Positions 5,917-41,178 of a stretch of DNA of 64,000 nucleotides are shown here, one piece after another. Numbering within the stretch: position 1 is the stretch's first letter; each line of letters opens with the position of its first letter. A program made the position numbers and the translations under genes. Under the pieces are notes generated by a model. The model did not search any database. It worked only from the letters and a program-made list of their open reading frames with translations, and had not been told where the DNA came from. Source of the DNA: Escherichia phage moha. The stretch lies in sequence record MN850590.1. The stretch is one strand, 5' to 3'.

Positions 5917-7487
5917 TAAAAATCCTCTTGTTCTTGGTCGGGGTCTTGGAAACGAGCCTCTTTCGACTCTTCTTCAATTTGCTTAGCCTCTTGTTCAATT
6001 TCCTCGTCAGACATCTGAAGAATATCTTTCATAGCTGTTCTGTGAGAAATATATTTACCAATAAATGGTTCGGCCATCTGAAGCATATTAATGCGACGCT
6101 CCAGAATCTCAGCATCCTTTAATTCCGAGAAATAACTATCCCGATGAAATTTTATCTTAATATTATTTATTTCATCATTCCACTCATCTTCTGTAATAAT
6201 TCCTTTAAGAATTAAATTAGTTTTAAGCGGGTCTAGGAATATCTCTTCAAATTTATGTTGCAGCTCACGAATAAATTTACCAAATGATAATTCATCTCGT
6301 GTAATAGAAGTACCAGCATCAAACTGTATACCACCTTGGTCACTTGGAATACGGGTAATAGGAATACGTAAAGCCATATAAAGCGCATTACGGAACCAAC
6401 GTACATCTTCCATATTTCCGGTATTATCTGCACCTGGTAATGTATCAACTTCTGTTACTGCTTTACCATCACGTCGTTGTAACCAATAATCTTCGGTCAT
6501 CGACATAATATGCTGCTGGTTTTTAATCTTGCCTGTAGTAGCATCATATGCAATACGGTTTTTCATCGTATTCATAACATGTTGCATATGTTCTGCTGCT
6601 TTTCTTGAAGGCATATTACCTGTATCAACGTACCATACACGACGATCAGGAGCACGAGTAATACGATAAATTACGACGGCATCTTCAAGAAGTTTTAATT
6701 GGTTCGCCGGCTTAATAGCCCGATGCAAATAACCAATGATATTTTTACCACAACAATCAACTAAACCAGAATGGGCATAAACAATCGCGGCTTTAGGGAT
6801 TTTTATTTTTGTGCCAGCTTCATATATGCGACCATCACAAGCGTAAGATTCGTGTGATGTGTCATAAATGAAATATTCTTTATAACCCTTGACTATTTTA
6901 ACACCGGCTTCAGTGGTTGTAATAACTTCACGGACATATTGAACTTGACGTGGATCTAAACGACGAAGCTCTTTAATACCTTCTTTAGGGCGTTTAGGGT
7001 CAATAATTTTATGGAAGAAAATTCGAGAATCTACATACCAACGCCTAAAATGGTCTGAACCTTTACGTTGGAAAGATAAATGATTCAACACTTCGTTAAA
7101 TTCATCCAACATCAATGATTTTATATTTGGACTAAATTTTGTGTTGTCTAAATTTATAGAAACGACTTCTGTATCATCTTCATATACGATAGCATCAGAA
7201 ACTATTTCAGAGACTGCATTATCCACTTCATAGTTCGTCATCAAATTTCGATACGTATCGATTAATTCACGGGTTGATTTGAGCCCTGGTTCTTGACTAC
7301 CGAACATTCTCTGAAACATAGCATTATATGTTTGCTGTGCTTCATTTTCAGATACTTCGTATTCTTTAGCACCGTCGTCCAATTTTGGTGCTGTGATAGA
7401 TTCTAAATTTTCTTTTTCTTGGTCTTTGTAATCACGTTCGTCCATTTTTGCCCATGGAGCAAACAAACTTAAGATATTAAATTTCAT
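5916..7487 (-). CDS. 20: portal vertex protein gp20
   Basis: 523-aa ORF (T4 gp20 is 524 aa) in the expected position. Confidence 0.93.
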
Positions 7488-7571: not shown

Positions 7572-8063
7572 TTATTCCCACCAATCAAGAGCAAGAGTTA
7601 CTTCGAACGTTTCAATCTCGTTATTGCTGTCCCAGTCAAGAGATACTTCGCCAACGTTAGTAGGCCACAAGCCGACAATTTCAACTTCTTTAGTGACCGT
7701 TTTAGCATCACGGGCAAATTGACGAACGATAGCAGACTTTTTATATTCAGCAGGTTTACCACCGGTAATTTCATTACCTTGTCCTGCTGCAATACCTTGC
7801 CAATCAACAAATTTCTGACGAATGCTATGAGCATCATCGTTCATTACTGTAATAGTCCAATCATCGAATGTACGATCACCGGCCACGTTAATTTTACGGT
7901 TCATATAAGAAACAGGAACCTTTTCAACAATCGCAGCAGGAAGAGCCGTAGCACGACACTGGAAGCTAAAGTTTTGCCCAAGATAAGAGATTTCTACTTC
8001 GAACAGGTTAGGGCGAGCGAAATCACCTGATTCGAATGCACGAGTTACGTCATCTACAAACAT
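7572..8063 (-). CDS. 19: tail tube protein gp19
   Basis: 163-aa ORF, same length as T4 gp19, in the expected position. Confidence 0.93.
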   Translation of the reverse strand: MFVDDVTRAFESGDFARPNLFEVEISYLGQNFSFQCRATALPAAIVEKVPVSYMNRKINVAGDRTFDDWTITVMNDDAHSIRQKFVDWQGIAAGQGNEITGGKPAEYKKSAIVRQFARDAKTVTKEVEIVGLWPTNVGEVSLDWDSNNEIETFEVTLALDWWE

Positions 8064-36116: not shown

Positions 36117-36191
36117 GGCCCTGTAGCTCAATGGGAGAGCTGTCAGCTCATAACTGATAGGTAGCTGGATCGAAACCAGCCAGGGTCACCA
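36117..36191 (+). tRNA. tRNA with CAT anticodon (Met, or Ile2 if C34 is lysidinylated)
   Basis: Manual fold: acceptor GGCCCTG/CAGGGTC, D-stem GCTC/GAGC, anticodon stem GTCAG/CTGAT with loop CT-CAT-AA, T-stem GCTGG/CCAGC, discriminator A and encoded CCA. Confidence 0.8.
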
Positions 36192-36194
36192 ATC

Positions 36195-36271
<77 letters not shown>

Positions 36272-38380: not shown

Positions 38381-38608
38381 ATGGCTAAAGTTAGTATTGA
38401 TGTCGTTGATTATGAATACACAGAAGAAGTTATTCGCAACCGCCACCCTGAAGTTCGTATCGATTCAGTCCAAGATTCCAAGTTCTGGACAACTGAGCTT
38501 AATCTGAGTGGTCCTTATGAAGCTGTTAAGAAGTTCATGGTTGAAGAATACTGCGAAGGCATGCACCCCGAAGACGCCAAGTTTTATGTCAATTTGATTA
38601 AAAAATAA
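38381..38608 (+). CDS. hypothetical protein (75 aa)
   Basis: ORF downstream of a truncated PeSL copy (right arm TAGTCCTATC at 38352-38361) with an AGAGGAAAA Shine-Dalgarno. Confidence 0.55.
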   Translation: MAKVSIDVVDYEYTEEVIRNRHPEVRIDSVQDSKFWTTELNLSGPYEAVKKFMVEEYCEGMHPEDAKFYVNLIKK

Positions 38609-38640
38609 TTTACAAACTCTTGAGAGCAGAGTATAATGCT
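38609..38640 (+). promoter_or_regulatory. sigma70-type promoter with the -10 inside an inverted repeat
   Basis: TTTACA, 17-bp spacer, TATAAT, with GAGAGCA / TGCTCTC arms flanking the -10. Confidence 0.6.
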
Positions 38641-38678
38641 CTCGTTGGATAATAAACCACCAATTGAAAGGTAATAAT

Positions 38679-39272
38679 ATGAACACACTGAAGAAACTTG
38701 TTGAATTCATCCGCACTAAACTTGGTACTGCTATGGCTAAAAATCTGACTGTCGAAGAACAGTATAACGCAGCTGCAGATAAGTTGATTACCCAAATCAA
38801 AGAACTAAAAACGGCTTCTGTTAAATCTATTAATGAAGAAAAACGTATTCGCGAACTTGTTAATGAAAAGAACAAGCAAGCCGCTTCTAAGGAACGTGAA
38901 ATTCGTAAGCTCCTGGCTGAAGGACAAGATGTTACCATGCATGCTAAGCTTGGTCTTCTGTATCGTCGAACTGCCGAACAACTTAATACAAAAGCTGACG
39001 GGTATGCCGCTATGCGAATTGAAATTGCTCGTAAGGTGGTTGAACTTGATGATGCTCGTCAGAATCTGGCAATCAAACTCGAATACATTCGTGAAACTCG
39101 AGCAGCCAATGCCCTTGGTATCTCTACGGCCGATGATGTAATTGAAATAGCTGCACTGACTAAGGTTGATATCGAAGACACTCTGACTCGTGTTGAAACG
39201 TTCAATGGCACTCCAGCCGGCGTCGAAACCACTTCTGCTGATGTACAAGAATATATTAACTCTTTGAAATAA
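38679..39272 (+). CDS. coiled-coil protein, possibly PspA/IM30-like (197 aa)
   Basis: Long heptad-rich helical sequence with an amphipathic N-terminus; assignment is by eye only. Confidence 0.4.
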
Positions 39273-39280
39273 AATAATAC

Positions 39281-39302
39281 GGAGGACTCCGGTCCTCCTT
39301 TT
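39281..39302 (+). terminator. rho-independent terminator
   Basis: GGAGGAC-tccg-GTCCTCC followed by TTTT. Confidence 0.7.
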
Positions 39303-39321
39303 GGATAATAAAGGAGTTAAC

Positions 39322-39924
39322 ATGCGAAACCAAAATAATGATATTGACTCAATGTTCGAAGAGTTCCGAGATAAGGTAAATCCACCTACGTCTTTAGTTG
39401 ATTCATTACGATATGTTGCAACCGGACGTAAATGGTACTGGTCGTCTTCTTATGAGACCACCGAGAAAACGGCTAGCCATAGCAGAAAATCTTTATTAGC
39501 CCCAGGTATTATGATTCATGATATCGGAGCTATTGCTAAACTAGTTGCAGACCATGATATTAGATTCACCGATTTCGTTGCTCCTACATGGTCTGTTTGT
39601 TGTTTAAACACTGAATGGGAATATATCAGCGAACGCTCTAAAGATTATTATGGTTTTAGAGATAAGCTTCTGAGGTCTAATATGTTTTATATCGATACAG
39701 AAGTTCTAGTCGATAATAAAAAATATTACTTTACGTTAATCATCGATTCTGAAACTATGTATGAAGGCAAGCCTTTGCTTAAAAGAGTTGATGCTTTAAG
39801 TGCTATTGATGCGCTTTATGAAACTATGGTTGTTAGTCCTAATTTCACTAACAATTTAATCCTTGAGCAATTTATTATGGAATGTAGAGAATATGTCAAA
39901 GCCAACCCTATACATGCCAAGTAA
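39322..39924 (+). CDS. hypothetical protein (200 aa)
   Basis: ATG after an AAGGAG Shine-Dalgarno. Confidence 0.55.
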   Translation: MRNQNNDIDSMFEEFRDKVNPPTSLVDSLRYVATGRKWYWSSSYETTEKTASHSRKSLLAPGIMIHDIGAIAKLVADHDIRFTDFVAPTWSVCCLNTEWEYISERSKDYYGFRDKLLRSNMFYIDTEVLVDNKKYYFTLIIDSETMYEGKPLLKRVDALSAIDALYETMVVSPNFTNNLILEQFIMECREYVKANPIHAK

Positions 39925-40285: not shown

Positions 40286-40383
40286 ATTTATGCTGTTTAC
40301 GCTTCTCAAATGATTAGTTATAATGAACTCCTAGCTAGACGTGAAAATGAAACAATCGAAAACTTTATTAAGGAATGTAGAAA

Positions 40384-40689
40384 ATGAGTAAGATTATTGA
40401 AATTAAAGTACCAGAGTTTAATGATGCCAAATCCGCTTCAGATGCAATTTATAAACTTCTGAATCAAGCTGAACGTATCGAAGAAGAAGCAACAAAGATC
40501 GCAGACCAATATGCCGTATCATTTTCTGTAGGTGATTATGGTAGCGGTCGTACTTATTATCCTAAGGGTGAAATCGTATCCCAGTGGATGAAAAATGAAA
40601 TTGAAAATAACGGTGGCGATGTTAAGCGTGAAGGTAATGGTTACATTATTACTGAAGGTGCTTGGGTTTCGTCTTCTGCGTTGTGTTAA
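40384..40689 (+). CDS. small protein, paralog family member 1 (C-terminal GAWVSSSALC)
   Basis: 101-aa ORF; shares a C-terminal W-V-S/A-S-S-x-x-C motif with the next two ORFs. Confidence 0.55.
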   Translation: MSKIIEIKVPEFNDAKSASDAIYKLLNQAERIEEEATKIADQYAVSFSVGDYGSGRTYYPKGEIVSQWMKNEIENNGGDVKREGNGYIITEGAWVSSSALC

Positions 40690-40698
40690 GGAATCATT

Positions 40699-40971
40699 AT
40701 GTCTAAAGAACAAACCGAACTGGCTGAAGCTGTAGCAAAAATCTATGCAGCTATTGAGGCTGCCAAAGAAATTGCTGATAAACAAAACACAACATTCAAC
40801 TTGTACCCAGCTTATGGTATGGGTGGAACCTATCATTCACCCGGACATCTTAAAGCCGATCTTGAACGTTGTACAAAAAACGGCTATGCTGAATGGGCTG
40901 ACGTTTACCAATACGACTACAACCTGAGCCTCGAAACTGGTGGTTGGGTCGCATCTTCTCACACTTGCTAA
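40699..40971 (+). CDS. small protein, paralog family member 2 (C-terminal GGWVASSHTC)
   Basis: 90-aa ORF in tandem with the previous one. Confidence 0.55.
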   Translation: MSKEQTELAEAVAKIYAAIEAAKEIADKQNTTFNLYPAYGMGGTYHSPGHLKADLERCTKNGYAEWADVYQYDYNLSLETGGWVASSHTC

Positions 40972-40980
40972 GGAAACAAT

Positions 40981-41178
40981 ATGTCTCGTGAATTAGATTG
41001 TGCTGTACGTACGGCAGTAGCTGCCCTGGAAAACCTGTTCCAAATTGCAACAGAAGAACGCGAAGAAGTTACATTATGGATTGAAGATAACGCAGGTCTG
41101 AATCTCCAGGACGCGATCTCATTATCCCACAATAGTATCACTGTTCAAGGCTGGGTATCATCTAGTTATTCTTGCTAA
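40981..41178 (+). CDS. small protein, paralog family member 3 (C-terminal QGWVSSSYSC)
   Basis: 65-aa ORF in tandem with the previous two. Confidence 0.55.
   Translation: MSRELDCAVRTAVAALENLFQIATEEREEVTLWIEDNAGLNLQDAISLSHNSITVQGWVSSSYSC

Follow-up and report, generated by a model that had tools for sequence, protein, structure and literature searches.

A gene at positions 38679-39272 of the plus strand of a 64,000-nucleotide stretch of Escherichia phage moha DNA (MN850590.1; the whole stretch is hereafter called the window) encodes a 197-residue protein whose family is, as the evidence strongly supports, a highly divergent, shortened branch of the PspA/IM30/Vipp1 proteins, which represent the ESCRT-III superfamily in bacteria. 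The window belongs to the genome of an RB69-like T-even phage of the genus Mosigvirus, and on sequence grounds the gene is the Mosigvirus orthologue of T4 gene e.6 (UniProt P39224, T4p129; phrog_1203), the name that we use throughout. The best explanation of the observations is that e.6 supplies the infected cell with an early, phage-encoded membrane stabiliser that would preserve the proton-motive force, a reading to which, with all of its steps taken together, we assign a probability of roughly 0.55. A first-pass annotation of this DNA had suspected an overall organisation reminiscent of PspA/IM30, and this suspicion has been borne out by profile, profile-profile, transitive Pfam, and fold evidence, as well as by the literature.

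Relationship of the e.6 protein to PspA and Vipp1

Three alignments underlie the comparison: A1, a profile of the close clade; A2, a 44-member alignment of the e.6 family that includes distant members down to 17% identity; and A3, an alignment of PspA and Vipp1 that comprises PspA from E. coli, four other enterobacterial, two gut-metagenome, and one actinobacterial PspA, together with residues 1-152 of Vipp1. A3 owes its diversity to the Vipp1 sequence and to tblastn matches in collections of phages and plasmids; the homologues listed for E. coli PspA were enterobacterial and at least 86% identical to it. When a hidden Markov model (HMM) of A2 was run against 177,635 PDB sequences, the top eight matches were all chains of the Vipp1/PspA family, the best being Synechocystis Vipp1 (E 4e-5), with an alignment that runs from query residues 1-146 to chain residues 1-147 and includes the signature of the hairpin tip. 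Comparison of A2 with A3 by hhalign gave a probability of 94.4% (E 8.5e-8) over 200 columns and the full length of the protein, pairing RVETF of e.6 with RFESF of PspA in helix a4 and YINSLK with LAQLKAK at the C-terminus, which is a shortened, low-confidence region. Against E. coli PspA alone, the same alignment reached a probability of 22% and covered a0 only. The profile similarity proposed in the first-pass annotation was therefore found, and the homologues carry no established different function.

In addition, the family is connected to PspA through its own members. Scanned singly against Pfam, five of the 44 members matched PspA_IM30, and two of them, P0063 (39.0 bits) and P0057 (35.1 bits), lie above the PF04012 gathering score of 33.9, with residues 6/7-146 aligned to profile positions 2/3-143. 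Their membership in the e.6 family is confirmed by the A1 HMM (E 5.6e-17 for P0063 and 7.2e-20 for P0057); P0063 also matches phrog_1203 (E 3.5e-65), and its gene neighbours uvsX and the gene 41 helicase on a T4-like contig. The exclusive ranking of PspA and Vipp1 chains, an alignment that keeps its register from Met1 onward, and the two members above the Pfam threshold argue against a coiled-coil artefact, and e.6 is very probably homologous to PspA/IM30.

The predicted structure leads to the same family. AlphaFold2 was run with 23 and with 44 homologues and gave two models that have a mean predicted local distance difference test score (pLDDT) of 76.8 and 78.8, respectively, and helices were assigned with DSSP. 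Helix content is about 80% in both, in agreement with the earlier description of the protein as almost entirely helical. The parts of the protein are as follows.

38682..38744, plus strand: helix a0, residues 2-22; basic, amphipathic, putatively membrane-binding; predicted, pLDDT 43-51
38751..38918, plus strand: helix a1, first arm of the hairpin, residues 25-80; pLDDT 74-97
38919..38933, plus strand: hairpin tip, residues 81-85 (E-G-Q-D-V); matches the PspA/Vipp1 tip 'G-x-[DE]...A-[KR]-x-x-L'
38934..39113, plus strand: helix a2/3, second arm of the hairpin, residues 86-145; pLDDT 80-95
39114..39269, plus strand: C-terminal part, residues 146-197; about 25 residues shorter than in PspA

Helix a0 aligns in register with residues 1-22 (AHa) of PspA and Vipp1 in both HMMER and hhalign, and both models predict a helix break at residues 23-24. 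Three of its positions are widely shared among the 44 family members (K5 in 38, F10 in 31, and K14 in 38). Its hydrophobic moment is 0.35 over residues 2-21 and 0.43 in the best 18-residue window, which is among the top five windows of the protein and comparable to a0 of E. coli PspA (0.40) and Vipp1 (0.50). The amphipathic N-terminus described earlier is thus matched in magnitude to that of PspA, but in a segment of this length it cannot be told apart from shuffled sequences (p = 0.17; for PspA, p = 0.08). The heptad periodicity claimed for the protein as a whole holds for one arm of the hairpin: the 3.5-residue hydrophobic periodicity is significant in a1 (residues 25-80, z = 3.55, reached by 0.8% of shuffles), and none was detected in a2/3 (residues 86-145, z = -0.38). 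At the tip, HMMER aligns 'LTNGE---ENLAREAL' with 'kkgeevvkthakLaL' in the comparison with Vipp1; G82 is present in 30/44 members, and A89, K90, and L91 in 24-34/44. The C-terminal part has short helices, a putative a4 remnant 'R-V-E-T-F', and a predicted terminal helix at residues 186-196 ('Y-I-x-S-L-K'), with residues 146-180 poorly defined (AlphaFold confidence 45-54). The most conserved residue of the family, G147 (43/44), lies directly after a3 in the segment 'ALGIxTADDV'. The protein has no hydrophobic stretch able to span a membrane.

In Foldseek searches of the PDB with both models, Vipp1 chains took the first nine places (best E 3.4e-4 and 6.7e-4); archaeal CdvB2 (E 0.04-0.06) and Synechocystis PspA came next. 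The hairpin of the model superposes on Vipp1 (6zvs_A) at 2.9-3.0 Å over 123 columns. Among viral proteins in BFVD, members of the e.6 family from Straboviridae and Ackermannviridae come first, followed at ranks 7-8 by a Snf7 family protein of the Megaviridae and a PspA/IM30 family protein of an Acinetobacter phage.

The e.6 protein shares with PspA/IM30/Vipp1 (PF04012; E. coli PspA and Synechocystis or Nostoc Vipp1) the order of its helices: a0 precedes an a1/a2-3 hairpin that is about as long as theirs, and a putative a4 motif and C-terminal helix follow. It differs from them in its low identity (only about 11-19%) and in that the single sequence falls below every curated threshold, and from PspA in the a4/a5 region, which accounts for the entire shortening by about 25 residues. 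Its a0 is more basic, with a net charge of +4 compared with 0 and +2 in PspA and Vipp1, and the 'ALGIxTADDV'/G147 segment is specific to the e.6 family, with no obvious counterpart in PspA. A hairpin-based fold is also common to e.6, archaeal CdvB, and the eukaryotic ESCRT-III protein Snf7; however, there is neither a match at the sequence level nor a Vps4/MIM context, and this relation exists at the level of the superfamily only. In contrast to bacterial PspA and Vipp1, e.6 is carried by lytic phages. The PspA/IM30 protein of Acinetobacter phage vB_AbaM_ME3 and the Snf7 protein of the Megaviridae are likewise virus-encoded members of the ESCRT-III superfamily, but these are recognisable by standard annotation, whereas the e.6 family is not. 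Two unverified gut-metagenome scaffolds deposited as 'Bacteriophage sp.', MT835668.1 (301-969) and MT839532.1 (301-978), encode canonical full-length PspA with 31% and 28% identity, respectively, to E. coli PspA. A recent capture of host pspA was considered as the origin of e.6 and rejected: none of the e.6 homologues was reached when 50,697 phage records were searched by tblastn with E. coli PspA, which points to an old divergent lineage.

Within the T4-like phages, the assignment of the gene is straightforward. The protein is 100% identical to those of Escherichia phages mobillu, APCEc01, and Mizar, all of the genus Mosigvirus, and 88% identical to the T4-type e.6 protein of Shigella phage Shfl2; in a scan of PHROGs it matches phrog_1203, labelled 'unknown function', with an E-value of 4.6e-87. 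The T4 gene, likewise 594 nt long, also lies between the tRNA/e.8 region and e.5-e.4, and the gene order is that of T4, with tRNA genes, small ORFs (open reading frames) of the e.8 type, e.6, e.5, and e.4, and with nudE and e further along. Matches to e.6 were found in 1101 phage records (e.5, 643; core gene 1 of the T4 type, 1549), and the family is also present in Aeromonas phages. Searched against 1.84 billion representative proteins, the A1 profile retrieved only 45 clusters (at 50% identity), all of about 195-209 residues, and the e.6 family, judged by this search, is a small, distinct clade restricted to phages.

Proposed role and alternative explanations

The homology between e.6 and PspA has been published before and is not new, although it is absent from the databases. 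The announcement of the genome of Klebsiella phage Metamorpho in 2021 reported an HHpred match of 99.9% between a homologue of T4 e.6 and E. coli PspA (4WHE_A) (PMC7862958). In a genome-mining study, Gendre et al. (2022) matched the phrog_1203 protein of the Salmonella Kuttervirus SeF3a to PspA in pdb70, found phrog_1203 in 4/15 Kuttervirus genomes, proposed 'phage_shock_protein_A' as its annotation, and suggested a role against abortive infection (PMC9409062). Apart from these two in-silico mentions and two omics or CRISPRi data sets, literature searches turned up no experimental study of e.6 or of a phage-encoded PspA. In T4, the e.6 RNA has been classed as early, and the protein (P39224) has been detected and assigned to the middle class (PMC9697503 supplement).

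In the explanation that we favour, the e.6 protein would be made early in infection, its basic amphipathic a0 would attach it to the inner membrane on the cytoplasmic side, and the hairpin would mediate oligomerisation as it does in PspA and Vipp1, so that a damaged or leaky membrane is sealed or stabilised and the proton-motive force preserved. For PspA and Vipp1, the AHa helix is needed for both membrane binding and effector function (PMC4556811). As for the reason that a phage would carry its own copy, the host psp operon may no longer be inducible at this stage. T4-type phages shut off host transcription, and the psp operon of the host depends on sigma-54 and PspF, from which we infer that the PspF-dependent response is out of reach in the infected cell. 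The benefit would be conditional. It may lie in protection from leakage at DNA injection or superinfection, in maintaining the energised state of membranes loaded with holin during lysis inhibition, which would prevent premature lysis, or in blunting membrane-depolarising host defences and abortive-infection effectors. Early expression, a promoter-like site upstream of the gene (described below), and dispensability on a healthy laboratory host all fit this picture of conditional membrane protection.

Several observations weigh against this reading. Taken alone, the window protein has no PF04012 match in Pfam even at E <= 10 and no PDB match by phmmer. The A1 profile reaches Vipp1 in the PDB only at E ~1-2, and hhalign of A1 against A3 gives a probability of 14%; since the shallow A1 fails where A2 succeeds, detection of the homology depends on the distant members. 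The HMMER match to Vipp1 carries a large composition bias (score 25.5, bias 16.6). In Foldseek, the E-values (3e-4 to 7e-4) are modest and the global template modelling (TM) scores are 0.45-0.57, the low values of which we attribute to the loose superposition of long helical hairpins, and the C-terminal third, which is longer in PspA, was modelled with low confidence. The proline at position 25, a conserved, helix-breaking residue between AHa and AHb of PspA and Vipp1 (PMC4556811) that is invariant in A3, is replaced by V25 in e.6, and only 7/44 family members have proline at this position; it is a conserved feature of PspA and Vipp1, yet it is not required for the fold. In comparison with the enterobacterial Psp system (PspA-F), the neighbours of e.6, namely e.5, e.4, and an FRD3-family ORF, gave no psp-related match when scanned against Pfam, the only match being FRD3. 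Finally, CRISPRi-ART knock-down of T4 e.6 was scored 'Not fit', which corresponds to no measurable contribution to fitness on the laboratory host (PMC11879866 supplement).

A different explanation is that e.6 is an unrelated coiled coil, matched to PspA and Vipp1 through its helical, charged composition and serving another role as a scaffold, a spanin-like protein, a tail protein, or a host-range determinant. The composition bias noted above speaks for it, as do the single-sequence scans of Pfam, NCBIfam, and the PDB, which returned coiled-coil noise only (spectrin, laminin, and spanin LysB), with weak matches to Rz-like spanins (E 0.014-0.04) and to spectrin or laminin repeats. Nevertheless, PspA and Vipp1 hold the top 8-9 ranks in the profile and fold searches, ahead of thousands of coiled coils, and the alignment stays in register from Met1 to the C-terminus, hairpin tip and a4 motif included, with two family members above the curated threshold of Pfam. 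An Rz-like i-spanin in particular was rejected, because the matches are weak and well short of cut-off (phrog_1267, E 0.042; TIGR03495, 15.6 bits against a cut-off of 92.75), the protein lacks a hydrophobic segment, and the gene lies in the early region rather than in a lysis cassette. The database labels are also on the side of this explanation: orthologue records are called 'hypothetical protein', many of them 'host specificity protein', and one 'tail completion protein' (e.g., P0003, P0031, P0033; BFVD A0A5Q2F7S5), names that recur in GenBank and UniRef. However, no tail-tip, host-range, or tail-completion family matches the protein in scans of Pfam, PHROGs, and NCBIfam. These labels are probably propagated misannotation, and the host-specificity or tail reading, for which we found only unsupported record names, was rejected. 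We regard an unrelated coiled coil as very unlikely.

The other two explanations accept the homology and differ in its use. In one, the biochemistry is the same as in our reading but the purpose is dedicated counter-defence, the neutralisation of membrane-permeabilising or membrane-depolarising abortive-infection (Abi) effectors, such as those of the Rex type or the pore-forming effectors of CBASS, retron, and Abi systems. This was the role put forward for phrog_1203 in PMC9409062, and it is in keeping with early expression, with the accessory status of e.6 in T4 ('Not fit' on the laboratory host), and with its patchiness outside the T4-like phages, where the Kuttervirus count given above is of the kind usual for anti-defence genes. 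On the other hand, e.6 is far more uniformly conserved than typical anti-defence genes, with its 1101 records standing against the 1549 of core gene 1, and it is under strong purifying selection; a purpose confined to counter-defence seems unlikely to us. In the other, which corresponds to the second suggestion of the first-pass annotation, the PspA-like hairpin would act as a regulatory mimic or antagonist that binds PspF, PspB/C, or PspA oligomers and thereby silences, hijacks, or poisons the phage-shock response. E. coli PspA in fact combines the part of an effector with negative regulation of PspF, and its residues 1-186 still repress without forming large oligomers (PMC4556811), which would suit a protein that is shortened at its C-terminus as e.6 is. 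However, e.6 and host PspA share too little sequence identity to be linked by tblastn, the AHb/P25 region, which has been implicated in regulation, lacks conservation (V25), and the family extends to phages of hosts as different as Aeromonas. Furthermore, host transcription is shut off anyway, so that little would be gained by repressing a host operon, and we judge regulatory mimicry to be quite unlikely.

The gene and its surroundings

The features of the gene and its immediate flanks are listed below.

38679..39272, plus strand: coding sequence of 197 codons, T4 e.6 orthologue; ATG at 38679, stop at 39270-39272
38666..38671, plus strand: Shine-Dalgarno-like GAAAGG, read from the sequence, 7 nt upstream of the ATG
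38609..38637, plus strand: promoter-like site of the sigma-70/T4-early type, TTTACA-17 nt-TATAAT (11/12), directly upstream of e.6; consensus scan only
39281..39302, plus strand: terminator-like GC-rich hairpin, GGAGGAC-TCCG-GTCCTCC, followed by TTTT; consensus scan
38465-38938 and 38805-39323, minus strand: long antisense ORFs overlapping e.6 (157 and 172 residues)

The start of e.6 is the ATG at 38679, whereas a mechanical listing of ORFs opens the frame at an upstream TTG (38664). The ATG was taken as the biological start because the homologues all begin there (M-N/S/A-x-L-K-K) and GAAAGG precedes it. In comparison with the T4-type orthologue of Shfl2, 89 of the 122 nucleotide differences fall at third codon positions, and the codon changes comprise 78 synonymous and 22 non-synonymous ones; 38679-39272 is a real coding gene under purifying selection. 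The two antisense ORFs were considered as genes and rejected as shadow ORFs, since the antisense frames of Shfl2 contain 3-18 stops and the substitutions track the codon phase of the plus strand.

The promoter-like site at 38609-38637 fits the early class of the T4 e.6 RNA. In Shfl2 (5935-5970 of the stretch compared), the spacing between TTTACA and TATAAT is just 12 nt, and the two hexamers overlap with the last part of the upstream ORF. As far as the two sequences indicate, the site is not conserved as such between the window and Shfl2, and the promoter arrangement upstream of e.6 may differ between the genera. The upstream gene differs as well, being an FRD3-family ORF in the window and e.7 in T4, as does the promoter-like spacing from that of the T4 type. 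On the downstream side, a predicted terminator has likewise been placed after e.6 in a T4-like phage (PMC5931544).

The neighbours of e.6 are e.5 (phrog_2607), e.4 (phrog_2604, a membrane protein), and the FRD3-family ORF. Functional coupling between e.6 and e.5 was considered and rejected, because the gene downstream of the distant homologue is unrelated (a phrog_11433 membrane protein) and e.5 is found in fewer records than e.6. From the same record counts and the unrelated genes that flank the distant homologue, it follows that e.6 is conserved independently of its neighbours. Other features of the region are as follows.

36117-36191 and 36195-36271, plus strand: tRNA-Met(CAT) and tRNA-Arg(TCT), as annotated in APCEc01
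38381-38608, plus strand: 75-residue ORF directly upstream of e.6; full-length match to Pfam Phage_FRD3 (E 1.3e-38)
40296-40324: promoter-like TTTACG-17-TATAAT just upstream of the tandem paralogues; consensus scan
40384-40689, 40699-40971, and 40981-41178, plus strand: three tandem paralogous ORFs of 101, 90, and 65 residues, 31-34% identical

The FRD3 ORF matches only the C-terminal end of phrog_1764 (positions 317-390 of 391). The three tandem paralogues (40384-41178) all begin with MSK or MSR and all finish with the motif G-W-V-[SA]-S-S-x-x-C. Upstream of them, at about 40286-40383, a gene of about 360 nt that lies between e.4 and the first MSK paralogue in APCEc01 (7589-7948 of the compared stretch) is apparently absent from the window, and the coordinate offset between the window and APCEc01 drops by about 239 bp across the same interval.

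Implications for T4-like phages

Although T4 is the best-studied phage, roughly half of its genes still lack a known function. With matches in more than 1,100 sequenced phages, e.6 is among the more widely conserved of these genes. Recognition of its product as a member of the PspA/ESCRT-III superfamily provides a concrete hypothesis for an early gene and corrects labels that are misleading, and the value of the finding lies in experimental follow-up rather than in annotation. A further point is that lytic phages themselves carry a membrane-maintenance machine that takes its name from 'phage shock'.

Should the protective role be confirmed, it would bear on how dying cells are kept energised, how the timing of lysis is protected, and how membrane-targeting abortive infection is countered. 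More tentatively, and with somewhat less than even confidence, we propose that T4-like and some Ackermannviridae phages may deploy early in infection a minimal ESCRT-III-type repair protein of their own, which would keep the inner membrane of the infected cell energised once host genes are silenced and so guard lysis timing, through holin triggering and lysis inhibition, and defeat depolarising defences. It would then be a case of the ESCRT-III superfamily being used by a virus for its own benefit inside a bacterium.

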